Positions 7,857 through 49,100 of a stretch of 64,000 nucleotides of DNA are shown in pieces (position 1 is the first letter of the stretch; the number at the start of each line of letters is the position of its first letter). The translations under genes were made by a program, and so were the position numbers. The stretch lies in IMG/VR virus record IMGVR_UViG_3300031721_000685, positions 1 through 64,000 of that record, one strand, 5' to 3'. The notes below the pieces were generated by a model. That model was given only the letters and a program-made list of their open reading frames with translations. It was not told the origin of the DNA and searched no databases. Source of the stretch: a virus.

Positions 7857-8894
7857 TTATGTAATATATTCTTCTAGTTTATTTTTAAGTATATGCAAAT
7901 TATTACTTTCAGGCGCTTCTCGCAACAATCTAGCAAACTCTATCTTCATCAAATCTATATCATTTTGTATTGTCGTCAAATCTCTATTATTTGCAGCATC
8001 AACAAATAGCGGATGCGCTTGGTCTAGACCTTGGCCTGCTTTTTGAAATTCTGTGTATCTCCATACAATGTCTTCAGCTTTATCACCAATAACATTTCGT
8101 ATTTCATCTCTATTTGTAGTTAAAAATGACATTTGATATATTTTATGGTATAGTATAGCATTTATTTGACTACTAGTCAATTCAATTTGTTTCATTGCCT
8201 CATCAGTAATGCTATAAAAATATTGAAACCAAGATATATTCGAATGCAGTTTACTATCGAATTCATTTTGAATCATATATTTAATGGCAGGGTGATTGAT
8301 ATTATTTCTAATAGTTTTTAATACAAGAACAAGTCGAAGATCGTTGCACTTTCTAGATAATGGTCTAGCGCCATGTAGAGCATTAGAATCGAATATAATC
8401 AGTCGCCCACATTTTGGTAAAATCGAATGTTCTATATCCTTCGTATCATCATTAATGAGTACAGTTTCGCCGCCCCATTGATAGTTCCATTTCGTATTTA
8501 AATATACCATACAAGTTTCAGATGGCTCACAGTATTGCCGTGCTATCCACGGGTCATCTCTATGAATATACCCATCAGTACCGTATGTATATCCATTAAA
8601 ATATATTCTATTGACGCCCGTATTGTCGCCGTCGGGCAGATGTGGTTTTATATTTTCCCATATATCAAATAAGTCAAAATAAGTGTCCCTGTAATAACTT
8701 AGCTTAGATATATCATACGGAAGATGTTTAACTATGAGAGTAGAACGCTCGTCTGGTCTATAGTTCCAATGGCCATGTGGGTCAACTGAATGATTTGCTT
8801 TCCACCCATATTTCATACCTTGTAATGGATACTTGTTTCTTATATAGTTAACATTATTTTGGTCGATAAAGTTATCAATAGTTTTATATAACAT
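7857..8894 (-). CDS. 2OG-Fe(II) oxygenase with C-terminal degenerate DUF6817-like domain
   Basis: HRD, WGGET, LHGARP, RLVLV; C-terminal HS...LYHKIY...RDEIRNVIGDKAE parallels the neighbouring gene. Confidence 0.8.
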   Translation of the reverse strand: MLYKTIDNFIDQNNVNYIRNKYPLQGMKYGWKANHSVDPHGHWNYRPDERSTLIVKHLPYDISKLSYYRDTYFDLFDIWENIKPHLPDGDNTGVNRIYFNGYTYGTDGYIHRDDPWIARQYCEPSETCMVYLNTKWNYQWGGETVLINDDTKDIEHSILPKCGRLIIFDSNALHGARPLSRKCNDLRLVLVLKTIRNNINHPAIKYMIQNEFDSKLHSNISWFQYFYSITDEAMKQIELTSSQINAILYHKIYQMSFLTTNRDEIRNVIGDKAEDIVWRYTEFQKAGQGLDQAHPLFVDAANNRDLTTIQNDIDLMKIEFARLLREAPESNNLHILKNKLEEYIT

Positions 8895-9363
8895 TTAATA
8901 ATACACCCAATTTATTAACGTTTTCGCTAGATAAGTCAAAATCATTAATGATTACTGTTGGCGATATATCACTCCTCATAGAGTCTTTTTGCTCTAAGAG
9001 GTTTGCAAACTCTATCCATCTCAGTTGTGTAATCCATGGATCGGGTAAAACTGTATTATTAATAATATCATTTGTTCTATCTTTCTTTTGACAAAATATA
9101 TTAACAAGAACTTCAGCTTCGATACCAATTATATCCTGAACTTCTTCTCTCTCTATGAAAAGTTGTTTAGAATGTTTGTAGTAGGTAGTACCGTAAATAG
9201 AATGAAAGAGTCCTGCTTTTTGTTCAACGACAGAACGACCAAAATGATTCAAGATATCAGAGGTGCCAATCAAATGCTCTAATAGTGTTTTTTTAGAATG
9301 TGGCAATTTATCAGCACCAATTGAATAGAGATAGTCAATTTGTATTTCTAATCCTTCTATCAT
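8884..9363 (-). CDS. DUF6817-like HD-related protein
   Basis: HSKKTLLEHLIGT...AGLFHSIYGT...IGIEAEVLV; ATGA overlap with the primase stop. Confidence 0.7.
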   Translation of the reverse strand: MIEGLEIQIDYLYSIGADKLPHSKKTLLEHLIGTSDILNHFGRSVVEQKAGLFHSIYGTTYYKHSKQLFIEREEVQDIIGIEAEVLVNIFCQKKDRTNDIINNTVLPDPWITQLRWIEFANLLEQKDSMRSDISPTVIINDFDLSSENVNKLGVLLNVI

Positions 9364-10364
9364 ATTCTTTTCCAAGTGATTAATTTCATTTCGGCTTCAA
9401 GACCGCTATATGAATTACTATCTATAATGAGTTGAATGTCAGCAGATTTCATACCACTGATTATCATATCGTTTATATCTTTACCAGGAGTGTCTGGCCA
9501 GAAGCATACTTTATATCCCTCTTTGACACACTTATTCATCTTCTCAACGATTTGTTTATTTCTCGGTTCGTTGTCGAACACGATAGTAGCATTCTCAGTA
9601 CGCATCAAGCTTTTAAATGATGAACCAGCCATAGCAATAGAATTATCAAGGAACAAACTATCAATTGGTCCTTCAACGACTGAATATTTACTGTTATAGT
9701 CTAAATCATGTAGACCGTATACCTTTTCTTTGTTTTCATCTAGCATTATAGTTATATATCTTATTTCAGTCGAACCAAACGCTCGACCTTGAAATCCAAA
9801 TACGCTCCCACGCTGATCTATAAATGGTAGTATGAGACGAGAATGTTCTTTCATCTCCAGCTTACCAGGCACGAGCGAATTTACCCAATCAACAAACTTG
9901 GGAGCGTAGTATAGTTTATAATGTTTATTTGTGGGGATTTTTCGTGATTCAACATACACCCGTGCTTTGTGATTAGGCATGAGTTGTGAAATCTTTTTGA
10001 TTTTGAGGAGAGGAGAACCACGCTTGCGAAACTTCGGCGTCTTGAAGTTTAATGCTGTAGGTTCTTTCTTCTTAGTCGATAGTTTTTCTAAACCATGCTC
10101 AGAAACATAGTCGTTATATAGCATAGTATCAACTAACTTTAGGAAGTATTTAAGATTATGACTTGCGTTGCAGTTATGACAATAGAATATAGTCAGTTCA
10201 TGACTTTTTTCGAGTATCCAACCACGAGCCTTACTCTTAGATTTCTGGGAATCACCACATATAGGACAACGACAGTTGACCCTGTATGGATGAGTAGACT
10301 TTACGCTGAATCTCTCTAGTCTATTTGACAAGAGATTAGCAAACTTCATATCAATAGGATTCAT
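9360..10364 (-). CDS. gp61: DNA primase
   Basis: CPICGDS...CHNC zinc finger; VEGPIDSLF and FDNEPRN TOPRIM motifs; KDINDM. Confidence 0.95.
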   Translation of the reverse strand: MNPIDMKFANLLSNRLERFSVKSTHPYRVNCRCPICGDSQKSKSKARGWILEKSHELTIFYCHNCNASHNLKYFLKLVDTMLYNDYVSEHGLEKLSTKKKEPTALNFKTPKFRKRGSPLLKIKKISQLMPNHKARVYVESRKIPTNKHYKLYYAPKFVDWVNSLVPGKLEMKEHSRLILPFIDQRGSVFGFQGRAFGSTEIRYITIMLDENKEKVYGLHDLDYNSKYSVVEGPIDSLFLDNSIAMAGSSFKSLMRTENATIVFDNEPRNKQIVEKMNKCVKEGYKVCFWPDTPGKDINDMIISGMKSADIQLIIDSNSYSGLEAEMKLITWKRI

Positions 10365-32375: not shown

Positions 32376-33035
32376 TTATTCTCCAAATGTAGAGTTAGAT
32401 TCAATTGCAATAAAATATTTTACATTGTCCGAAACGAAGCACGATAGCCCCTTTGATGATAGATTAACCATATAATCATTCGGCATTAGTTTTAGATTTT
32501 CAACTTTGAGATACATATTAAACGCATCTGATGTCGAACCAACAACGACACCATAACGGTCAGTTGTTGGATTTTTAGAGTTTACAGCCTCCAATACGAT
32601 TTCACCATTGACCCCTGAAAAGGCAATCTCTGGTAAACCAAGCACAGAAGCAGCCTTGAGAACAGACTGCATATCACTCCAAGAAATATTCACATTTACC
32701 TCACAAACAGGCATAGAGATATCTTTTTCTGGTGGTTGTAAAATCATAGAAACATCAGCAAGAGTATATTCAACTTTTTGCTTGTTCTCCATGATATTGA
32801 TTGATTTATCATTGAAAGCAATCTCAGGTGTTTCGAACAACGATACTGTTGCGAGAAAACGAGATAGGTCATAGATACCTGCTTCAGATGAAAAATCATC
32901 TTTACCGTTAGCAATAGCCATAATAGTCTTTTGAGGAGAAATTGTTCTCAATGCGCTACCAGGTTTGATAACGATAGAAGGATTAATAGAAGAGAAATTC
33001 TTCAAGATGTCCATAGTATATTCGTTTAGCTGCAT
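32376..33035 (-). CDS. gp45: Sliding clamp
   Basis: LKNFSSINPSI, IYDLSRFL, ENLKLMPNDY, YFIAIE. Confidence 0.95.
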   Translation of the reverse strand: MQLNEYTMDILKNFSSINPSIVIKPGSALRTISPQKTIMAIANGKDDFSSEAGIYDLSRFLATVSLFETPEIAFNDKSINIMENKQKVEYTLADVSMILQPPEKDISMPVCEVNVNISWSDMQSVLKAASVLGLPEIAFSGVNGEIVLEAVNSKNPTTDRYGVVVGSTSDAFNMYLKVENLKLMPNDYMVNLSSKGLSCFVSDNVKYFIAIESNSTFGE

Positions 33036-33049
33036 TATATAGATCTCCG

Positions 33050-33979
33050 TTATTTACGATTGCGCTTACGAGTAGCACGAGTAGTTTTAGCCTTTTGTCG
33101 TTCTTTATTTATATGAGTTTTTTTACCCTCTTTGTAGTATTTTTGGTTCGATTCGTCGCTTGCAGTAGGTGACGCACTAATAGCAGCCATTGCACCAAGG
33201 CTGCCACCGAAGATATATGAACCAACATGCTTGAGTTCCATCCAAGGACACATCCATACCTTCATACCAGCTTTACGAACATTCTGACAGAACATATAGT
33301 CTTCTGATAGATAACGCTTCGTCTCTGGGTCAATGATACAGTCAAAGTAAGCCATAATCTCACGAGAGCCATCAAAAGCGTCTGTGCGAATATGGTCTGG
33401 TAGATAGTGATATTCTGGATATGCCTCCTCATATTTCTCAAATGTATTACGAGGAATACACATGAAACCAGTACCAGCTTCTAGTACTTCTACTGGTTGG
33501 TCAACACGAAACCCCGTGACTCCCTTTGCTGGATTGAACACGTAGTCGCCAACAAAGTTCTCAAGATTAAACGGATTCTCATCAGCATGGCCCATCTTCA
33601 CTGCCTTAGCAATCTTTTCCCATGAGATAGATTTCTTAGGATATGGACCTGTGATGATATCTGTATTATCTGGATCAGCCATTTGCAACGCAAGCAAGGC
33701 AAACACATCGTTCGGCTGAAAGCCAATATCGCTATCAATGAACATCATATGAGTGCAATCACTACGCATGAACTCGTCCACACAGTAGTTTCTAGCACGA
33801 GTAACAAGAGATTCGTTGAATAGATAATAAAACTTCAGTTCAACACCATACTTGACTGCCGCCATACCAAGGTCGTTGGTAGATTTAGTGTACATGCCAG
33901 CGCATTGACCGCCGTACATAGGTGTTGCAACGAACACCTTTGCTTTTCGTAACTCCTCAACTTGAATTTTTAGTTGCAT
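33050..33979 (-). CDS. GT-A fold glycosyltransferase-like protein
   Basis: ATPMYGG, NESLVTRARN, FIDSDI (DxD), AGTGFM, LSEDYMFC. Confidence 0.75.
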   Translation of the reverse strand: MQLKIQVEELRKAKVFVATPMYGGQCAGMYTKSTNDLGMAAVKYGVELKFYYLFNESLVTRARNYCVDEFMRSDCTHMMFIDSDIGFQPNDVFALLALQMADPDNTDIITGPYPKKSISWEKIAKAVKMGHADENPFNLENFVGDYVFNPAKGVTGFRVDQPVEVLEAGTGFMCIPRNTFEKYEEAYPEYHYLPDHIRTDAFDGSREIMAYFDCIIDPETKRYLSEDYMFCQNVRKAGMKVWMCPWMELKHVGSYIFGGSLGAMAAISASPTASDESNQKYYKEGKKTHINKERQKAKTTRATRKRNRK

Positions 33980-34289
33980 AGGCATTCCTTTCATTAGTAT
34001 CATCTTTCGCTTCCCAAACGTTTAGATGATTGTTATCATGATCATGTAGAGCTATGATAGCATAGTGAATGACCTTTGTCAAGTCATTTCGCCAATCTTC
34101 CACACTTCCTTTATGCCCATATCGTTGAGCGTACTTCATAATATTACCAATACAAAAACCAGCACCATGACCACTATCTAAAATAAACTCAGTAGCTTGA
34201 TACTTGTTCTGCGAATAATGCTGGCTGTAGGTAGAGTCTACATACTCTAAGATTTCTGCCAGCAGCTTGTCTTCACTATACTTATACAT
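33957..34289 (-). CDS. DUF3310-like protein
   Basis: HYS...GFCIGNIMKYAQRYGHK...DLTKVIHY. Confidence 0.75.
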   Translation of the reverse strand: MYKYSEDKLLAEILEYVDSTYSQHYSQNKYQATEFILDSGHGAGFCIGNIMKYAQRYGHKGSVEDWRNDLTKVIHYAIIALHDHDNNHLNVWEAKDDTNERNAYATKNSS

Positions 34290-34306
34290 CGCCTCTACCT
34301 CTAGCT

Positions 34307-34684
34307 TTACGAAACCCCATTATATATCATTCTCTTCAACTCTGGTTTACGATAATTCGGACCCTTGAGAACTTTGCCGTCCTCACGATAGATAGGCTTT
34401 CCGTCAATTCCTAATTTACTCATATTACTATTATGCACTTCTTCGAGGCATTTGTCAAGATCAATTCCAAAAGAATGTCCAGCACCATATACAACGTATA
34501 AAATATCAGTCAGAGCATCTGCAACCTCAACGATATTTCTATCGTCTAATGCTTCACGAAGCTCTATAACTTCTTCTTCAATCAATGCATAGCGTAGTTC
34601 AGCAACAGAAGACCACTGTGGTTCAGTCTCAACATTTTGACCAAACGCATCCATAAACTCTTCTACTTTTTCAAAGTTAGTCAT
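34307..34684 (-). CDS. MazG-like nucleotide pyrophosphohydrolase
   Basis: LIEEEVIEL, ADALTDILYV, EVHNSNMSK, GKVLKGPNY. Confidence 0.9.
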   Translation of the reverse strand: MTNFEKVEEFMDAFGQNVETEPQWSSVAELRYALIEEEVIELREALDDRNIVEVADALTDILYVVYGAGHSFGIDLDKCLEEVHNSNMSKLGIDGKPIYREDGKVLKGPNYRKPELKRMIYNGVS

Positions 34685-34687
34685 ACA

Positions 34688-35602
34688 TTATTCTCCATAA
34701 TTTTCAATAAGAATCATACCATAGTTATTCGTTTCGGAAAGCATTTTCATATCAGGTTTGTAGCGTAGTTTATTCTTTTTGAAAGGCCCATAATCAACAT
34801 GATGATGCCAACGACCATATTTCCAAGAAATACGAGCAACGTCTGGATGCATTTTAACGAGCATCTCTGATTTGTTCACTGTACCTACAGCGTTATAACC
34901 AATATTCTTCATATCTTCAGCTTTATCTAAAACTTCAGTGCCTAATTCTTTATGATAGAATTCCTCAGTGTTGCCACCCTTCACAGTTTGAGTGGCTGCT
35001 TTGCCTTGAAGAAAGGAATTGAATTGAATAGTACAATCGCCATCCTTTAGCACACGAAGAGATAGGTCAGTATCTTCATTATAACGACCACGCCAACGAT
35101 GCTTGCACTCATTATCAATGAGCAAGCAAGAATAGATACGAGTGTTTGTAACAAAGGGCGGATAATGCTGATTTGGAGCAATAAAAAAACGATACTGAAA
35201 ACCAGACACTGGAACATTCTCAAAACGATCTATAAAGTCTTCTGCTGCTTTGAAGATAGCGCCACTGCCGACACGAATACGTTTGTTCTTATGTAGTCTG
35301 TAGAAGTCGGCAATATTATCATCCATTACCCAATGCTTTTCAGCACCAATAGAGATAGCATGATCCCAGCACCAGTTTCTTGCTCTGCCTGGTCCATCAC
35401 CATGATTGCTGAATGGGGCAACAAGTAAGGTTACCCATTCACGAATATTGAAATTATCTAACGCTTTCTCATAATTATCTAAATCTTGTGGCTCAATCGC
35501 AATATAATGTGGTACACCGATCTTACATAAAGACCTTGAGGTACCCATAGATTCGTGTCTGCCTTTAGAAACAATATAAACTGGCTGTTCAGGATTAGTC
35601 AT
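34688..35602 (-). CDS. TET-associated/GREB1-like DNA glycosyltransferase
   Basis: YIVSKGR, ARNWCWD, WVMDDNI, WRGRYNEDTDLSL, GGNT. Confidence 0.75.
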   Translation of the reverse strand: MTNPEQPVYIVSKGRHESMGTSRSLCKIGVPHYIAIEPQDLDNYEKALDNFNIREWVTLLVAPFSNHGDGPGRARNWCWDHAISIGAEKHWVMDDNIADFYRLHKNKRIRVGSGAIFKAAEDFIDRFENVPVSGFQYRFFIAPNQHYPPFVTNTRIYSCLLIDNECKHRWRGRYNEDTDLSLRVLKDGDCTIQFNSFLQGKAATQTVKGGNTEEFYHKELGTEVLDKAEDMKNIGYNAVGTVNKSEMLVKMHPDVARISWKYGRWHHHVDYGPFKKNKLRYKPDMKMLSETNNYGMILIENYGE

Positions 35603-36455
35603 TCAAAAAGTTCTCCAGATTATTACCACGTTTAGAGTATGCTTTGTTCCAGTGACATCTCCATTTGCCAAAATCACGAAAGCCACCATCCTCTCTCTTT
35701 ACATTACCAACAGTTATATCTTTGTAAACGATTTCAAACAAGCCAGGAAACATTTTCGCTATAGTTTCGTGGTCTCTTTGCGTATCTTCGACAGTCTGTT
35801 CATCCCATATGACAGATTTCATAGTCTTATTATTAACACTTTTGTTCACAAAACAAAACTCTTGGCTTACTCTGTTGCTGAATCCTCGTGTGAGTAGAGA
35901 TAGAAGAAATACGATATCTTCGCCGACTTTGACCTCAGTTAGTTTTAAATCGGGCAACACATGAGCAAAGTCCTTTCCGTTAATCCAATATTGACTGCCC
36001 AAAGAAACGTTCGTTGAATAGGCTTTAATCCTAGGAGGATGTTCAATGTGACTGCATCCACACACAGTAACATCATCTTCTAGCCAAGAAGAATACATTT
36101 CAAACATCTCTAAAATATCATCAGGTGTGCATTTGCGTTTAGACTTTTTCATACTAGAGATGTCAGACCAATATTTAGTATTACGACGATAAAAAGTGAT
36201 ATCATCATCTAGTAGAGCGTATTTCATATCCTTAGCTTCATTGTAGATTATGTTGCGTGTCTCAGATATTGCTCTAGGATGCTCTAATGTAATATACTCT
36301 GGTAGAACCAAATAGTCAACATTAAAATCGTATTTTTCTCGTTCCCACGACTGAACAACGAACACTACCTGACGTTTGAGTTCATCAGGTAGAGCATTGT
36401 ATGTGATTTGATTGTCAATTCGATTCACAGTGGGAATGAATATCTTATCCATCAT
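35595..36455 (-). CDS. TET-associated/GREB1-like glycosyltransferase paralog
   Basis: IFIPTVNR, ISETRN, LLDDDI, GED. Confidence 0.7.
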   Translation of the reverse strand: MMDKIFIPTVNRIDNQITYNALPDELKRQVVFVVQSWEREKYDFNVDYLVLPEYITLEHPRAISETRNIIYNEAKDMKYALLDDDITFYRRNTKYWSDISSMKKSKRKCTPDDILEMFEMYSSWLEDDVTVCGCSHIEHPPRIKAYSTNVSLGSQYWINGKDFAHVLPDLKLTEVKVGEDIVFLLSLLTRGFSNRVSQEFCFVNKSVNNKTMKSVIWDEQTVEDTQRDHETIAKMFPGLFEIVYKDITVGNVKREDGGFRDFGKWRCHWNKAYSKRGNNLENFLND

Positions 36456-36808
36456 TCTTCTTCTATCCAGCGTAATAGAGAGTTAGCTGTCTTATCTAGT
36501 TTTGGATGCCAGATTACTGGGTTGTTTTTAGATTTAACTGATGGGTATTGTCCGATCAATTCGCAGAACTCGTTGTAGTCTTCTTCATTTCTAAAATGAA
36601 CGTAGATAGTTTTGAACTTACCGTCTTTATTAACAGCATTCTCGAACTCGGGCATGCCTTGCCAGTGCTTTTTCCAATAATTTGGATGCGAAGTTTCAAC
36701 GTCTGAAATGTCATCAACGAAGTCTTCAAGTGTTGATTCTTTTGACTCAACTTTCTCAGACATTTCTTTCATATAGTTATCGTAATCTCCACTTTCTTTT
36801 ACTGTCAT
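36452..36808 (-). CDS. Hypothetical protein associated with the glycosyltransferases
   Basis: WQGMPEF...VHFRNEEDY..F..LIGQ...IWHP. Confidence 0.7.
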   Translation of the reverse strand: MTVKESGDYDNYMKEMSEKVESKESTLEDFVDDISDVETSHPNYWKKHWQGMPEFENAVNKDGKFKTIYVHFRNEEDYNEFCELIGQYPSVKSKNNPVIWHPKLDKTANSLLRWIEEE

Positions 36809-36820
36809 TATCATCTCCAA

Positions 36821-37753
36821 TTAGAAAAAACTTTCAAGTGTTACTTTTTTATTCTTATTGTATTTCATGTTTTCAACTTCTAAATTGAAATCAGGCATAG
36901 GTATGTTTTTCTTATTTGCTCTATCGGTTATGTCATACCAAATTAGATCAACGTCTTTTGGGTAAGATTGGTGGAACCAATCGAAAGTCGTCTTACCTAT
37001 ACCAGCGTCTTTTTTCGAATCTGGCATAGGTTTTAAATATTTCTTGGCAGTCTTATTGAGAGGATAGATGTATCGAAACATATAGCCAGAAATACGTTTA
37101 ATACCTTTCTTTTGCATGAAATCGGACGTTAACCAAAACACTTGTTCTGGTCGTTTGAGTTTATCCCATCTGCCATCATTCTTTTCTTTTAAGAACAAAG
37201 CGTTTTCTTTACATAGTTCTTTGGATGTTCTAGGATGCAATTTCTCACCATTTTCCATGAGATATACATCTGTAAAATATTTATTGCCAAAATAAAAGTT
37301 GGATGCTTGATATACATAACCACATTTCCCCATGATGCCGTCTGCCATCGTGTATAGAAAAAGACACTTCGGATGATTCTCTTTTAACCAGCGAATAGTG
37401 GCAGACAACATTTGTGATTCTGAATTCCTAGGCATAGCGTCTGTCATACACATTTTACCAATCTCAAAATAGTAATTAGAAATCGGATGTATATACTTTC
37501 CATCCTCAGTTTTCTCATTGACTTCATCTTTGAAACCAACAAACATTTTTTTAAATGTATCTCTTGGTCTTGTACCCCATCCAAGAGTCAACGCACCTAC
37601 CAAAGCACTATCTAGATAAAAACCTAAATAGTGCTTTGTGATCGCAGGCATGACAGGAGAGTAATGATGATTTTCTACGAACTGAACAGCAACATGTTTA
37701 TTAAGTTCTTTTACTTCAAACTTTACTTTTATGGTGCCTGTCTTATTTCTCAT
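36821..37753 (-). CDS. Mom-like GNAT DNA-modification enzyme
   Basis: HHYS, EIGKMC, PRNSESQMLS, TMADG, GYVYQASNFYFG. Confidence 0.75.
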   Translation of the reverse strand: MRNKTGTIKVKFEVKELNKHVAVQFVENHHYSPVMPAITKHYLGFYLDSALVGALTLGWGTRPRDTFKKMFVGFKDEVNEKTEDGKYIHPISNYYFEIGKMCMTDAMPRNSESQMLSATIRWLKENHPKCLFLYTMADGIMGKCGYVYQASNFYFGNKYFTDVYLMENGEKLHPRTSKELCKENALFLKEKNDGRWDKLKRPEQVFWLTSDFMQKKGIKRISGYMFRYIYPLNKTAKKYLKPMPDSKKDAGIGKTTFDWFHQSYPKDVDLIWYDITDRANKKNIPMPDFNLEVENMKYNKNKKVTLESFF

Positions 37754-37821
37754 GTTATGAATAGTTTACCTTGATGATCAACCGCTTACCTTCCTTCGAA
37801 ATGTTTTTCTGATTGTGTCTA

Positions 37822-37850
37822 ATAATAGCACACGGAAAGGAGTGTGTCAA
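37822..37850 (-). promoter_or_regulatory. Sigma70-like promoter with inverted repeat
   Basis: TTGACA-17bp-TATTAT; CACAC-N8-GTGTG. Confidence 0.7.
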
Positions 37851-37855
37851 GTGCT

Positions 37856-39049
37856 TTATGCCGCAACCTCAAGTGCTTTGTCAATTTCCATGAAGTCAGT
37901 TCTCTCAGCCTTCTTCTTTTTCTTTGGAAGATTAGCAATTACCTTCTCATATGGAATCAACCTACCACCATATACTTCCTGTTCACCCACTAGCTGTGGA
38001 ATACACCCCTCAATTGTCCAAGGACGATACTCTGGAATGTTATCTTTGATAAACGGGTCAAGGACGGGCATCACGACTCTTACCAAATTAAAGCAGTTCT
38101 GATAAGCAGTCTCTATTGCATCAACAAAGGTTTGAGTGTTTTTCTTGATATCGGCAGGTTTGCGCTTCTTGCTATAGAGGATGATTCGCACTGGGTCAGT
38201 GCGTTGTATCTTTATACATGCAGGAACAATAGCGTCTGCCATAAGACGGTCTGCATATCGCATGTTATCAACACATACAACAAATAGATTTTTATCAAAG
38301 TTACCATTAGAATCTTTCTCTTTGTACCTATTTTCCTGTGCCCATGCATCTGCCTTGGGGGTATCCATGAATATAGATAGTTCGTAAGGTGCATTTCCCA
38401 ACTCAACAATCTTATTGAGAATTTCCTTTTGTGTGCTTGCTGATAGAAACCGTTCCTTATAATTCATGCGGTCTTCTAACCAAGTGAGTGCAGAGGCTCT
38501 GTCTCCATCAATGATCCCTTCCTTGATAAATTTTACACCTGTCTGGATGTAGTCATCTTTCTTATTAGTCCGTACACTACCAATAAGGTTATTTGCCTTC
38601 TGTGCTGCTTCTATGAGGTATTGGTACACTTCTTCATCAGTGAGTCCTTCATCTGGCGTATACACTGCAATGGGAATAAATTTAGCACCACGTTCAATCG
38701 CACCACGAAAACGGCGGCGACCATTGATTGCTTCAATATCTCCATCCTCAGTTTCCATAAACTGTGGTGGTGGACCCTGTTTAGTATCCCAATCAAGACG
38801 AGTATAGGAATCCTGCATCTCGTTACTCGCTTCTGCTTCGCCATCATCGAAACGAATATTGTACTGTTCTAGATTTTTGTAAAAAGTGCTGGTGGTGTTG
38901 TATTGCCTGATATCCAAAATATAGATATACTGGAACGTAAAGCCAGTATATTTTGGCATTTCCATATCTAGATAGTTTGTGAGGTCTATTGTGGAATTTG
39001 CATCATTGAATGATGGAATTCGGGTGTCTCCGATAAATCGGTTCTTCAT
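37856..39049 (-). CDS. ParB/Sulfiredoxin-like N-domain protein
   Basis: PPPQFMETEDGDIEAINGRRRFRGA resembles the ParB/Srx xxGxxR motif. Confidence 0.5.
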   Translation of the reverse strand: MKNRFIGDTRIPSFNDANSTIDLTNYLDMEMPKYTGFTFQYIYILDIRQYNTTSTFYKNLEQYNIRFDDGEAEASNEMQDSYTRLDWDTKQGPPPQFMETEDGDIEAINGRRRFRGAIERGAKFIPIAVYTPDEGLTDEEVYQYLIEAAQKANNLIGSVRTNKKDDYIQTGVKFIKEGIIDGDRASALTWLEDRMNYKERFLSASTQKEILNKIVELGNAPYELSIFMDTPKADAWAQENRYKEKDSNGNFDKNLFVVCVDNMRYADRLMADAIVPACIKIQRTDPVRIILYSKKRKPADIKKNTQTFVDAIETAYQNCFNLVRVVMPVLDPFIKDNIPEYRPWTIEGCIPQLVGEQEVYGGRLIPYEKVIANLPKKKKKAERTDFMEIDKALEVAA

Positions 39050-39137: not shown

Positions 39138-39168
39138 TATTTATAACACATTATTCAATGTGTGTCTA
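39138..39168 (-). promoter_or_regulatory. Composite sigma70/late promoter with palindromic spacer
   Basis: TAGACA-17bp-TATAAATA; ACACATT-N4-AATGTGT at 39146-39163. Confidence 0.65.
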
Positions 39169-39175
39169 GAGGTTT

Positions 39176-41668
39176 TTAGAAAAAACTTTCAAGCGTCGAT
39201 TGCTCTTCAACTGTCCATCCAACAGCATCAAGAATCAAACGAATCGGCTCAACAAACGTTTTACCATACTGCATATCATAGTCGATAAAACGGTGTAAGT
39301 CAAACTCTTTTGGTAAAATATCTGGGAATGAGATAACATTTTCACGAATGGGATTAGGCATCTTCAGATAGATGAACTTAATCTTCTCGCCGTTCTTGAT
39401 TTCACCAAGACGATTGTTCAGACGATGCTGTTTCAACAGATGATTGTATAGCAGAGAGCCTCGAACATGGATGGGCGTGCCCTTACCGTATATAGCCTTT
39501 GCATCAGCGTTCTTTTTTATATCGCTCACACCACGAGGAAACGCAATGTCTTCTGGGTTCTGGCTTGAAAACTCTTTACGGAAGTCAGCAATGAATGTCT
39601 GAATATCTTTGTTAGTACCAGACATAATCAACTCGAATGCTTCTTTGAAACGGTCACGGCAAATCTGAGGCGTTGAAGACTTGATAGCCTCAATGCCCAT
39701 AATCTTCATCTTGGGTTCAGCGTACTGGACGCCCTCATTGTTATGAACGTTCAGAATGTAGCGCTTCTTAGCAGTCCACACGCCACGGTCAGCAATCGCT
39801 TCTCGACCCATAACCATACGATTTTCATAACCACCCATCTGCTTGTAGAGTTTGTCAAACGATTTTGTGATTACAGGCTCAATCGCTTGAGAGCAGACTT
39901 TATCGAGATATTTTACAGTGTCTTCTTTGCTGTTATTTGGGTAGGTCTTCTCTACCAAATCTTTCATATTGAGATAGACAGAATCAGTGTCAATGGCAAT
40001 CACATAATCTTTATCTGTTTTCAAAACATTGTTGAGATATTTGTTGATAGACTTCTCAGCGCTTAGCACAGACAGTTGACCAGAGAGCGTGATGCCTTCA
40101 GCGATGCGCATATCAAAGTAACGGAAGTATTGATTACCTAGCGCACCATAAAGAGAATTTAAGAGAATTTTAATTGCCATCTGCTGGTTCTCATATCGAT
40201 TGACGTCACGCTCAACCTCATATGACTTGCCAAACTTCTCAAGTTTCTTCTGTGCTTCAATCATCTTGCTCTTTACTTCAACACGTTCAGAGTAGTATGC
40301 TGTAACGATAGAAGGTAGAACACCACGATGGTTTGTACGAAAATATGTGCCGTTAGCTGCCATTGCATAGTCAGTATCGTTTACGACTTCACCAGACAGA
40401 CACTTGCTGACAGAAGCATTGAAGTTTCTATCGTTCTCAACGATTGTCTCAGGCGACATATTGTATTGCACAATGAGATTAGGATACAGAGAGTTCAAGT
40501 CAAATGAGCATACCCAATCGTGCATACCCACTTGTGGGTCTTTCACATAACCACCAGGATAGTCGCTCTTCATCTTTCCTGCATAGGGTAGAATGGCAAT
40601 CTTCTTTTGACAGAGGTTGCGATAGATAATCGTGTCCCAGATGCCAGTTGTGCCGAATGTATCATTGTAGTTGACGCCAGCTTTATAAGCAATCGTCATC
40701 GCAAGTACAATCAGCCCCATCTTGTCTTCAAGACGGTCTACAAGTTGAACGTCTTTGATATTGTAATCAATAAATTTCTGATGATCTTCTTTGTAAAGCG
40801 TGTATAGATTGCCATATTCTTCATAAGACAACTTACGCTCACCAAGTACGACATAAGCAATGTGGTCTAGTCGATAAGATGCTTGTGTGCCATATGAATA
40901 GCCAAACTTCTGAAACAAGTCCAGATAGTCTAGTTGAGAGATGCCAGTCATCTCATACGTATTCATTTCTTTCATCTTGTAGCGAACAGATTTCTGCTCA
41001 ACCATCTCCCACGGAGACATTTTCTTTGTTAGCTTTTCGCCAATCACACGATGCATACGATTGATGATGTATGGCACATCGAAGAATCGAACGTTCCAAC
41101 CCGTGACAACATCTGGCTTCAGATTTGACCAGAACAGCAAAAACTTCTCAAGTAATTCCTTCTCATCACGACAGTACATATACTGAACTTTAGAAACAAT
41201 CGACTTTGATGTATCATATTCGCCGAGACCCCAGACATAGTAGTTCTCATCTTTGTTAGACTTGAGAGCAATAGAGATTACTGGGTGATTTGCTTGGTCT
41301 GGCTCTGGGAAGCCCTCGTCAGATGCGACTTCAATATCAATATTCACAATGTTGACTAGATTTGAATCAAACTCGACCTCATCAGGCCAGCGTTCTTGAA
41401 TGTATTGACTAATATATTTTGTGTTGCCATAGACGTTGAACCCATCGACACCGGTGTACATCTCCATGAACTGCTTTGCTTCACGCATAGAGTCGAACTT
41501 CATGGGTTCTACGTTGACGCCATCAAGGGCTTTCCAGTCGCTCTCATTCTGCGATTGAGCATAGAGTGTGGGCTGAAACTTAATCTTCTGCTGAATGGGC
41601 GACCCGTTACGATACCCACGATATAGAAGGTTCTGACCGTAACGTGAGACATTTGTATAGAAGTTCAT
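39176..41668 (-). CDS. gp43: Family B DNA polymerase
   Basis: DIEV exonuclease I; SFDLNSLYP; KILLNSLYG; DTDS. Confidence 0.97.
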   Translation of the reverse strand: MNFYTNVSRYGQNLLYRGYRNGSPIQQKIKFQPTLYAQSQNESDWKALDGVNVEPMKFDSMREAKQFMEMYTGVDGFNVYGNTKYISQYIQERWPDEVEFDSNLVNIVNIDIEVASDEGFPEPDQANHPVISIALKSNKDENYYVWGLGEYDTSKSIVSKVQYMYCRDEKELLEKFLLFWSNLKPDVVTGWNVRFFDVPYIINRMHRVIGEKLTKKMSPWEMVEQKSVRYKMKEMNTYEMTGISQLDYLDLFQKFGYSYGTQASYRLDHIAYVVLGERKLSYEEYGNLYTLYKEDHQKFIDYNIKDVQLVDRLEDKMGLIVLAMTIAYKAGVNYNDTFGTTGIWDTIIYRNLCQKKIAILPYAGKMKSDYPGGYVKDPQVGMHDWVCSFDLNSLYPNLIVQYNMSPETIVENDRNFNASVSKCLSGEVVNDTDYAMAANGTYFRTNHRGVLPSIVTAYYSERVEVKSKMIEAQKKLEKFGKSYEVERDVNRYENQQMAIKILLNSLYGALGNQYFRYFDMRIAEGITLSGQLSVLSAEKSINKYLNNVLKTDKDYVIAIDTDSVYLNMKDLVEKTYPNNSKEDTVKYLDKVCSQAIEPVITKSFDKLYKQMGGYENRMVMGREAIADRGVWTAKKRYILNVHNNEGVQYAEPKMKIMGIEAIKSSTPQICRDRFKEAFELIMSGTNKDIQTFIADFRKEFSSQNPEDIAFPRGVSDIKKNADAKAIYGKGTPIHVRGSLLYNHLLKQHRLNNRLGEIKNGEKIKFIYLKMPNPIRENVISFPDILPKEFDLHRFIDYDMQYGKTFVEPIRLILDAVGWTVEEQSTLESFF

Positions 41669-41691
41669 GCATATCTCCAAAGTGAATAGAC

Positions 41692-47934: not shown

Positions 47935-48378
47935 CTAATCTTCCTTTAAAAATCGACTGATATCAAGACTAATCTTACTGTCGATACGGGCTCTCAATTC
48001 CGTTGATGAAAATCTATGTCTACGAGTATTGTAATATAATTCAATGCCATTGGTTTTGCAGAACGTTTTACCAGTGAATAACTTATCCTTATACTCTTCG
48101 CCCAAGATTCGAATGTTGATTGGATATGTCTGAAGAATATCTTCCAAATCACTTTCCCATTCATATGGCACAATTTCGTCTACGTATGATACTGCGCTTA
48201 GTTGTGTATATCTTTCTACAATGGTTTGTACCGGTTTGTCTTTGTTTGCTCTATCGTTTGATGGATCAATTTGTAGACCACAAATAAGATAGTCACAAAC
48301 ACTCGCAGCTTCTCGTAACATCATAATATGACCAGAATGTAACAAGTCAAATGTTGATGCCGTAAATCCCACTTTCAT
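47935..48378 (-). CDS. TagD-like glycerol-3-phosphate cytidylyltransferase
   Basis: FDLLHSGH, YVDEIVPY, FSSTELR. Confidence 0.85.
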   Translation of the reverse strand: MKVGFTASTFDLLHSGHIMMLREAASVCDYLICGLQIDPSNDRANKDKPVQTIVERYTQLSAVSYVDEIVPYEWESDLEDILQTYPINIRILGEEYKDKLFTGKTFCKTNGIELYYNTRRHRFSSTELRARIDSKISLDISRFLKED

Positions 48379-49078
48379 CTTGTAAAATCTCCCATGTATG
48401 TTTCCAACCATTTACTTGGTGTGTATACCCCATTTGGTTGTCTTCAATCGCTTTTGCTAGTGGATAGTCGTTTCCACCCTTATATGTAGTGTCGCCAAAG
48501 AATACGAGTTTGTCTTCAGTGCTGTCGAAATCTTTTACTATCTGACCCTTATCTTTACCTTTCTCAGTAATATCCATACCAATATCACCAGCAACTTGAA
48601 ATTGATATTGCGTAAATTCTTGTGATAACTCTTCGGCAATTCGATTTCGTTCTTTGTGTACCAAATCGAATTTAACGTATTCTAATCTCTGTTCAGGATT
48701 GGCGTTCCTGCCAACTGTAGAGAAGTTGATAAGTCCCATGCGGTGTTCAATGTGATTGCCTGTTTTGGTCAGATGTTTGCTCTGCGCAGATTTCTCTTTG
48801 AGAGACTTTAATAATTCTATAGATACTTTCATTTTATTCTGACTGACAACCCTGTCGCCTTCCCATACTTCATTACCTGAGCAGTTGTATACTCTCTTAG
48901 CAGCAAAATATGTGGGAATACCTATTTGTTCGATTGTTTTGACTCTATCTGAGCCAGTAACTAGATACACGCTATTTTTATTAGAGAAATTAAAGAACCA
49001 GGTTTGAAAATCCTGATCCATCAAACTTCTGCTTGGTGTTAATGTACCATCAACGTCAAACACATAATGTAATATCAT
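48347..49078 (-). CDS. HAD-IIB phosphomannomutase-like protein
   Basis: FDVDGTLT, VTGSD, INFSTVGRNA, FFGD...GGNDY. Confidence 0.85.
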   Translation of the reverse strand: MILHYVFDVDGTLTPSRSLMDQDFQTWFFNFSNKNSVYLVTGSDRVKTIEQIGIPTYFAAKRVYNCSGNEVWEGDRVVSQNKMKVSIELLKSLKEKSAQSKHLTKTGNHIEHRMGLINFSTVGRNANPEQRLEYVKFDLVHKERNRIAEELSQEFTQYQFQVAGDIGMDITEKGKDKGQIVKDFDSTEDKLVFFGDTTYKGGNDYPLAKAIEDNQMGYTHQVNGWKHTWEILQDESGIYGINI

Positions 49079-49100
49079 AGTACTCTCCATACTTCATTAT

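Follow-up and report, generated by a model that had tools for sequence, protein, structure and literature searches.

DNA hypermodification decides whether a phage escapes restriction, CRISPR and glycosylase defences, and it also supplies enzymes for DNA-labelling technology. The described systems closest to the locus considered here, a run of seven co-oriented genes lying between the genes for the DNA polymerase (gp43) and the sliding clamp (gp45) of an uncultured aquatic T4-like phage (IMG/VR record IMGVR_UViG_3300031721_000685), involve quite different chemistries. The first is that of Mom from phage Mu, which transfers glycine from Gly-tRNA(Gly) to adenine N6, the adduct then rearranging to carbamoylmethyl-adenine; its active site is lined by H58, Y59, R111, S124, D149, R151 and Y159, and while the R151A variant is inactive, the activity of R111K is drastically reduced (PMC13219725). 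The second is that of the TET-associated glycosyltransferases (TAGTs; PF20691), of which the beta-glucosyl-HMC-alpha-glucosyltransferase of T2/T6 (HMC, hydroxymethylcytosine, also written hmC) is the founding member. The T6 TAGT adds a second glucose to glucosyl-hmC, so that T6 carries two sequential sugars (PMC13390438), while 5mYOX-associated GT-A enzymes glycosylate 5-hydroxymethylcytosine (5hmC) and resemble the trypanosome base-J glucosyltransferase; their motif R...DDD...ED is given in a preprint (Pyle 2023; bioRxiv 2023.12.21.572611). DNA is the substrate of every PF20691-type enzyme characterised so far (PMC13216743; bioRxiv 2023.12.21.572611), and the existence of "solitary TAGT homologs" has been raised as an open puzzle (PMC13216743). 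As regards the clamp, T4 alpha-glucosyltransferase co-purifies with gp45 (PMC13216743), which is the sole precedent we have found for a modifier tethered to the clamp; gp45 or clamp genes otherwise appear in the literature searched only as neighbours of phage glycosyltransferases (bioRxiv 2023.12.21.572611).

The stretch analysed, referred to below as the window, comprises the first 64 kb (64,000 nucleotides) of a 75.8-kb contig whose completeness is put at 42% by CheckV. The original prediction for this locus had named a Mom-like enzyme, an accessory open reading frame (ORF), two TET-associated-type glycosyltransferases, a MazG-like hydrolase, a DUF3310-like protein and a GT-A enzyme; all are present and contiguous on the minus strand (Table 1), and their description as modification-type enzymes is borne out, with the added point that they are embedded in the replisome operon. 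Our preferred reading, to which we would assign a probability of roughly 60%, is that this part of the replisome operon is a hot spot in which at least three independent modules (Mom, TAGT and a set of older residents) have accumulated. Mom, by analogy with the Mu enzyme, would modify adenine N6 in double-stranded phage DNA, and would be held on gp45 through a C-terminal copy of the polymerase's tail peptide, which would let it act on freshly replicated DNA. The protein encoded by the accessory ORF (118 amino acids, aa) and the glycosyltransferase TAGT1 would together make up a two-part transferase, which with the clamp-tailed TAGT2 would add one or more sugars to a base of the phage DNA. The GT-A, DUF3310 and MazG-like proteins would be the older residents, recurring in relatives that lack the Mom and TAGT modules, and any role for them in modification is unproven.

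Separate modules and shared tails

The independence of the modules is seen in their distribution among relatives. The contigs fetched, about 200 in all, comprised 80 with a relative of TAGT1 (70-88% identity), 78 with a relative of TAGT2 (for which a single-sequence search gave nothing, while an alignment-based search succeeded) and 40 with a relative of Mom. Mom is present in only one of the 80 TAGT1-bearing loci (L012), and the 40 Mom-subfamily loci, which adjoin gp43, gp44 or gp45, have TAGTs nearby in a single case (L181, which is the L012 contig); overall, among approximately 160 TAGT-bearing loci, only a single related contig (found as L012, L173 and L181) has Mom and TAGTs together. TAGT2 is an optional extra, being present in about 11 of the 80 TAGT1-bearing loci, and the MazG-like gene is found in a similar number of them (about 11 of 80). 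Homologues of the GT-A gene fill the slot between gp46 and gp45 in Sinorhizobium phage phiM12 and Stenotrophomonas phage DLP6, neither of which gives a TAGT match, and GT-A also precedes gp45 in Mom-bearing contigs that have no TAGT; DUF3310 similarly lies near gp45 in environmental relatives without TAGTs. These last two genes are older residents beside gp45. In other relatives the interval from gp46 or gp43 to gp45 holds a peptide deformylase, a CobS-like AAA protein, a MazZ-like diphosphohydrolase or a T4 gp1-like deoxynucleoside monophosphate (dNMP) kinase. The cargo of this region is variable, and what the island contains is a set of independent modules stacked together rather than one pathway.

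This bears on what had been proposed for the chemistry, namely a dual or uncharacterised base modification, possibly a disaccharide or an acylated sugar. That two unrelated chemistries are involved (Mom on adenine, and TAGT-type glycosylation) is very probable, but a single pathway leading to such a product is not supported, as only one related contig combines Mom with TAGTs and the Mom reaction, in which Gly-tRNA is the donor and adenine N6 the acceptor, is self-sufficient (PMC13219725). Similarly, the third glycosyltransferase is real as a GT-A enzyme, but a place for it as a step of that pathway is not supported, since it occurs near gp45 without TAGTs, phiM12 and DLP6 included.

A second body of evidence concerns the C-termini of the encoded proteins. 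In the window gp43 ends in STLESFF, Mom in VTLESFF and TAGT2 in NLENFLND, these being the only real genes there with the tail motif; Mom and gp43 thus share the identical hexapeptide TLESFF. Within the Mom subfamily all 31 full-length members carry a tail, while TAGT2 homologues (33-67% identity) end in TLENFF, SLESFF, SLSEFF, TLDEFL and similar sequences. Moreover, the tail covaries with that of the cognate polymerase, as seen in the window, in Methylophilales phage Melnitz (Mom TLEGFF, gp43 TLEDFFG) and in Aeromonas phage PX29 (Mom LTDLFGDF, gp43 LTDLFGDW). No C-terminal extension or tail is present in Mu Mom or in the Mom of a Psychrobacter siphovirus. A census of 1717 distinct ORFs from the related loci found the motif on 11 of 11 gp43 sequences and 49 of 65 TAGT2 sequences, but on none of 86 for TAGT1, 43 for GT-A, 38 for gp45 or 37 for gp44. 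The remaining carriers include a T4-type RNase H, three N6/N4 DNA methylases and two S-adenosylmethionine (SAM) methyltransferases, one of which (in L053) fills the TAGT2 slot between the 118-aa ORF and TAGT1. RNase H is a textbook gp45 client, and so constitutes an internal positive control for the census. Taken together with this control and with the precedent of T4 alpha-glucosyltransferase, tails that match the cognate polymerase and are kept in homologues lead us to infer that Mom and TAGT2 dock on gp45 and would act on newly replicated DNA. The sharing of a polymerase clamp peptide by unrelated DNA modifiers suggests that T4-like phages may aim modification at their own new DNA.

As to Mom itself, membership of the family is clear from the hidden Markov model (HMM) score (165.5 bits for PF25680, against a cut-off of 27.1), from assignment to PHROG 1384 and from a match to the structure of Mu Mom (8bv8, E 4.7e-11). 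Equivalents of Mu residues H58, Y59, S124, D149 and Y159 are all kept. At the positions of R111, R151 and W181, however, the window protein has K, I and K respectively, and these are invariant in 25 aligned members of the subfamily; the Mom of phage PX29 retains both arginines. The pattern of replacements points to a distinct, conserved Mom subfamily of T4-like phages, which offers a natural experiment on donor specificity and for which modification of adenine N6 may be proposed by analogy with Mu.

A split glycosyltransferase and the source of its acceptor

Both predicted TET-associated-type glycosyltransferases do indeed match PF20691, TAGT1 with 149.4 bits and the divergent TAGT2 with 44.9 (cut-off 27.5). 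TAGT1 has 128 residues that are invariant in 53 relatives, MDD and NEDTD motifs included, and its GT-A motifs (R73/R75, D94-D95 and E176-D177) are invariant in 53 sequences; in TAGT2 the corresponding R...DDD...ED elements are R67, D83-D85 and E179-D180, again invariant. Among cultured phages TAGT2 matches only the TAGT of Nonlabens phage P12024L.

The 118-aa ORF, for which "accessory" had seemed an adequate label, can now be placed more precisely, since fusions and synteny mark it as the N-terminal domain of TAGT1, split off as a separate gene. Of the 80 related loci, 77 have it upstream of TAGT1, the other three being cut at the end of the contig, and in some of these loci a methyltransferase or TAGT2 stands between the two. 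A search for longer homologues using the single sequence found none, while a subsequent profile search (built from 32 homologues) gave 2,871 clusters among 1.84 billion representatives; most of the matching proteins are stand-alone and 85-125 aa long, several are fused directly N-terminal to PF20691, and some of the fused forms carry the N-domain as a tandem pair. The fused junction runs ...KLRWV, a short linker, then PKYPLYIVSKGR, which may be compared with the end of the 118-aa ORF (LLRWIEEE) and the start of TAGT1 (PVYIVSKGR); in addition, the C-terminal 70 residues of the 118-aa ORF can be aligned with the beginning of the 399-aa TAGT from Aeromonas phage Aeh1. When modelled alone with AlphaFold the 118-aa protein is mostly unfolded (predicted local distance difference test, pLDDT, 59.7) and too poor for a fold search, as might be expected of a piece that folds against a partner. 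These comparisons argue that it is the detached N-terminal domain of TAGT1, acting as a partner subunit. A reading of its LRWIEE end as a clamp peptide was considered and rejected as the main explanation, this segment being internal, at the TAGT junction, in the fusions. The 48-kb, siphovirus-like genome of Vibrio phage 1.076.O, which gives no TET match, also has a fused, long-form TAGT (L178:6534-7703), placed between its portal and head-morphogenesis genes; for a DNA-modification gene the site is an odd one.

The obvious question is then what the sugar would be attached to. The original prediction noted that neither a hydroxymethylase nor a TET gene is visible in the window, and this is confirmed for the whole 75.8-kb contig; for the assumed hydroxymethyl-pyrimidine acceptor there is no visible source anywhere in the clade contigs searched. 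PF00303 (the thymidylate-synthase, TS, family, which includes the hmC, hydroxymethyluracil and 5-hydroxycytosine synthases) gave no match in the contig or in 21 related ones; PF12851 (TET/JBP) gave none in approximately 65 contigs, and PF00145 (C5-methylase) none in 15. As a positive control for PF12851, the TET of Nonlabens phage P12024L, in which TET, TAGT and methyltransferase are adjacent, was matched at E 2.8e-29. All the contigs of this T4-like clade are incomplete (42% for that of the window, 62-76% for the best relatives). Two of them extend far from the TAGT locus, G001 with about 91 kb of sequence upstream and G011 with about 98 kb downstream, and their combined reach is roughly the whole-genome size of 175-180 kb derived from CheckV. 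None of the related contigs searched for each family combines the TAGTs with PF12851, with or without PF00145, or with PF00303, so the sugar acceptor is left without a visible source. Probably none of the known routes supplies it, neither the ThyA-type one (a hydroxymethylase or hydroxylase) nor the TET/JBP one, whether or not a C5-methylase takes part. The long TAGTs of Aeromonas phage Aeh1 and Paraglaciecola GD virus 1 occur in genomes with one full TS-family gene each.

Some individual candidates for a precursor or donor enzyme were also considered. ThyX is present in one relative (G006), as it is in cyanophages, but there is no evidence that it makes a hydroxymethylated base. A 2-oxoglutarate (2OG)-Fe(II) oxygenase fused to DUF6817 (7857-8894, minus strand), followed by a stand-alone DUF6817 gene (8884-9375, minus strand), adjoins nrdA in the window; as the missing hydroxylase it was rejected, being absent from 13 TAGT-bearing relatives. 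Between uvsY and gp23 lies a gene for a eukaryotic-type phosphomannomutase (48347-49090, minus strand; PF03332, E 7e-25), which was likewise discounted as a dedicated sugar-donor gene, being absent from the five relatives that cover the region; it is lineage-specific cargo, though it could feed a mannose donor to a transferase here. Since neither the phosphomannomutase nor the oxygenase is conserved, neither is a standing partner of the cluster.

Of the competing explanations, the one that survives best, although we consider it unlikely, is that the TAGT pair, the GT-A enzyme or both glycosylate protein, lipid, envelope or a small molecule, so that only Mom touches DNA. It gains from the want of any visible source of a hydroxylated base, from the tail-less ends of TAGT1 and GT-A, from the head-gene setting of the TAGT in Vibrio phage 1.076.O, from the single full TS-family genes found with the long TAGTs of Aeh1 and the Paraglaciecola virus, and from the nearest GT-A folds, which include protein O-glycosyltransferases (COLGALT1, ppGalNAc-T) and polysaccharide enzymes; all the same, it is hard to square with the DNA substrates of every characterised PF20691-type enzyme (PMC13216743; bioRxiv 2023.12.21.572611), with the conserved position of the module inside the replication operon, or with the presence on TAGT2, and on the methyltransferase that can replace it in its slot, of the tail seen on polymerase, RNase H and DNA methylases.

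Improbable too is that all these genes serve one pathway, in which a complex adduct is built on a hydroxymethyl-pyrimidine, the hydroxymethylase or TET lying in the unsequenced 58% of the genome, with MazG as dCTPase or dUTPase and DUF3310 as a nucleotide kinase. Such a pathway would fit with the tight packing of the genes behind one promoter-like site, with the co-occurrence of TAGT1 and TAGT2 in many contigs (compatible with sequential sugars of the T6 kind; PMC13390438), with the gp1-like dNMP kinase or MazZ-like deoxynucleoside triphosphate (dNTP) diphosphohydrolase found beside GT-A in relatives, and with the resemblance of DUF3310 to the C-terminal parts of PHROGs labelled "nucleotide kinase". 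However, Mom is almost never found with TAGTs and can do its chemistry without a sugar, the GT-A gene is seen without TAGT both in cultured phages and in relatives, as DUF3310 is in relatives, the three precursor-enzyme families went unmatched in the related contigs searched even with the pair of roughly genome-length span included, and MazG resembles Deinococcus DR2231 and not T4 gp56. Finally, it is very unlikely that the C-terminal peptides have a meaning other than clamp docking (as a tag for degradation or packaging, for instance, or as the outcome of local recombination with the end of the polymerase gene) and that the enzymes work free in the cell, since even though clamp binding is here deduced from sequence, and the tails of Mom and gp43 in the window agree in all six residues in genes only about 1.4 kb apart, the tail follows its cognate polymerase in three distant lineages, persists in TAGT2 and Mom homologues that are 33-60% identical, and occurs on RNase H, a gp45 client.

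There are also a number of points that weigh against the hot-spot reading as we have set it out, or against particular parts of it. TAGT1 itself is without a clamp tail. The window Mom lacks both R111 and R151, residues that are essential in the Mu enzyme, and the K/I replacements may mean that its donor or product differs from that of Mu, or that it has some other activity. A precursor enzyme may sit in the unsampled part of the genome, or may be too divergent for the Pfam models. The setting of the fused TAGT in Vibrio phage 1.076.O would be compatible with a target other than DNA. Lastly, modification of the virion DNA is a prediction from the genes. Overall, the original interpretation is partly supported.

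A stronger statement can be offered only tentatively, and we regard it as rather doubtful as it stands: that the aquatic T4-like phages of a very widespread clade use a two-part TAGT and a clamp-tailed one to glycosylate their DNA at the clamp without any of the known acceptor enzymes, while in the present lineage a clamp-tethered K/I Mom adds a second, possibly non-glycine, adduct to adenine. If true, this would imply either a new acceptor, whether a canonical base or a novel modified one, or an unrecognised hydroxylase. The TAGT module is common, the N-domain profile alone accounting for about 2,900 clusters at 50% identity, yet it comes with no visible source of the base, in keeping with the puzzle of the solitary TAGT homologues (PMC13216743), and the question of the acceptor is testable with three small genes.

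Gene order, promoters and neighbouring genes

The polymerase of the source phage shows 53% identity to that of Phage C48C1 and about 49% to those of cyanomyoviruses, and a megablast search of the region against cultured phages gave no match. The order of genes on the minus strand is gp46, gp43, orf397, the cluster (37753-33050), gp45, gp44, gp62 and regA; upstream of this block lie UvsW, UvsY, gp55 and gp23, and downstream of it UvsX, gp41 and NrdAB. Within the replication operon the polymerase gene has changed place among relatives: lying here between gp46 and the cluster, it is found downstream of gp44 in L009 (17233-19734) and after regA in phiM12 (L091).

Table 1. Positions of the cluster genes, flanking features and tail-bearing genes of relatives (window numbering unless a contig is named).
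Feature	Position	Strand	Remarks
gp43 DNA polymerase	39176..41680	-	Flank; C-terminus STLESFF, reference for the tails
orf397	37856..39049	-	ORF without family match; late promoter TATAAATA at 39138-39145
Sigma70-like promoter	37822..37850	-	TTGACA-17-TATTAT, extended TG; 11/12 consensus match only
Mom-subfamily enzyme	36821..37753	-	310 aa, GNAT-type; PF25680, E 1.6e-48
118-aa ORF	36452..36808 (longer start 36820, 122 aa)	-	GMPEF...KTKSIWYP...LRWIEE; no Pfam or PHROG match
TAGT2	35595..36455	-	286 aa, divergent glycosyltransferase; PF20691, E 1.6e-11; ends NLENFLND
TAGT1	34688..35602	-	304 aa, catalytic part; PF20691, E 1.7e-43
MazG-like/PRA-PH protein	34307..34684	-	125 aa, all-alpha NTP (nucleoside triphosphate) pyrophosphohydrolase; PF01503, E 1.8e-20
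DUF3310 protein	33957..34289	-	110 aa; E 1.6e-10; recurrent gp45 neighbour in relatives
GT-A glycosyltransferase	33050..33979	-	309 aa (317 aa from 34003); phrog_1574; D82-S83-D84, E226-D227
gp45 sliding clamp	32376..33035	-	Flank; presumed docking partner of the tails
Tail-bearing N6/N4 methylases, class-I SAM methyltransferases and RNase H in relatives	L075:2741-3805, L170:3668-4816, L100:100-1104, L053:9207-9998, L013:574-1428, L115:5209-6030

That the cluster would be read from one promoter, as originally suggested, is plausible: the sigma70-like site falls within the 102-nucleotide gap ahead of the Mom-like gene, neighbouring genes of the cluster overlap or lie no more than 17 nucleotides apart, and no terminator-like hairpin was found in the intergenic gaps between them. 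Two further promoter-like sites (11/12) lie inside the cluster, at 34458 and 34082. The late promoter ahead of orf397 is of the T4 type, and this marks orf397 as a separate unit; it is probably lineage-specific cargo, outside the early modification operon. The only hint as to its nature, weak at E 0.04, comes from the MIR domain of the protein O-mannosyltransferase PMT4, and in the ESM Atlas both it and the 118-aa ORF fall only in unnamed viral clusters. No homologue of orf397 was found in the 80 TAGT1-bearing loci, and in the closest relative (L012) the same slot holds unrelated ORFs of 409 and 168 aa (L012:6043-7842); the slot is a hypervariable cargo site adjoining Mom.

For the GT-A protein Pfam gives just a sub-threshold match to GT21. 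Its AlphaFold model (pLDDT 78.7) is matched by Foldseek with probability 1.00 to STIV A197, COLGALT1, GlfT2 and SpsA, and the D82-S83-D84 motif is invariant, so that the model and the DxD motif together indicate an enzyme of GT-A fold. The conserved start, M-(Q/E)-LKIQVEELRK, is preceded by an in-frame stop codon in L012, and the true start in the window is therefore probably the M of MQLKIQ at 33979 rather than that at 34003. The window lineage also has a C-terminal tail rich in Lys and Arg, which is missing from most homologues. The slot between GT-A and gp45 is occupied in L018 by a protein with a MazZ-like dATP/dGTP diphosphohydrolase N-domain (L018:16684-17040) and in L032 by the T4 gp1-like dNMP kinase (L032:16115-16792), such a kinase (DNMK) being found in none of the approximately 55 window ORFs scanned. 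The idea of a PurZ-dependent Z-genome, prompted by the MazZ-like gene of L018, was dropped, there being no PF00709 match in five contigs.

The MazG-like protein has as its closest solved relative the MazG-like NTP pyrophosphohydrolase DR2231 of Deinococcus (E 2e-12), and a role as a dedicated dCTPase is not supported. Since DR2231 is characterised as a dUTPase, the window protein may be concerned with ordinary nucleotide housekeeping.

Comparison with known systems

All the parts of this locus belong to known families. With Deinococcus DR2231 and cyanophage MazG the MazG-like protein shares the all-alpha NTP pyrophosphohydrolase fold family, the difference being that the window gene is optional in relatives. 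The phage cassettes that combine a 5mYOX enzyme, a methyltransferase and a glycosyltransferase (Burke 2021, PMC8256090; Pyle 2023 preprint; P12024L gp26-gp28) have the glycosyltransferase family in common with the present locus, whereas TET/JBP and C5-methylase genes were found with the present TAGTs in none of the contigs searched (about 65 and 15 respectively). The T2/T6 system is alike in family, in the R...DD(D)...ED motifs, in belonging to a T4-like phage, and in that two transferases may act in series; it differs in its dCMP hydroxymethylase, its alpha- or beta-glucosyltransferase partner and its gp56-type dCTPase, counterparts of which were not found here, and tblastn cannot pick up the slight similarity to the coliphage TAGTs. 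One new element is that no known enzyme for making the acceptor turned up in the contigs sampled; another is the split TAGT architecture, in which N-domain and catalytic part are separate proteins and a second copy is clamp-tailed.

From Mu Mom (PF25680; PDB 8BV8; Silva et al. 2026, PMC13219725), to which it is linked by the strong HMM match and the five retained active-site equivalents, the window enzyme differs in the K/I/K substitutions at R111, R151 and W181 that are invariant within its subfamily, in a C-terminal extension of about 65 residues that ends in the polymerase clamp peptide, in having no Com-type translational control gene, and in its setting, within the replisome operon of a lytic T4-like phage; the K/I subfamily is again new. 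The same is true of clamp tails on a Mom-type enzyme and a TAGT. Here the comparison is with the gp45 clients of T4 and RB69 (the gp43, gp55 and gp33 tails, RNase H and the T4 alpha-glucosyltransferase; Sommer 2004; PMC13216743), which have in common with the present proteins a short C-terminal peptide of the form (S/T)L-x-x-aromatic-hydrophobic, and among which the binding of a DNA glucosyltransferase to gp45 provides a precedent; what differs is which proteins bear the predicted docking tail, namely Mom and TAGT2 here and DNA and SAM methyltransferases in relatives.

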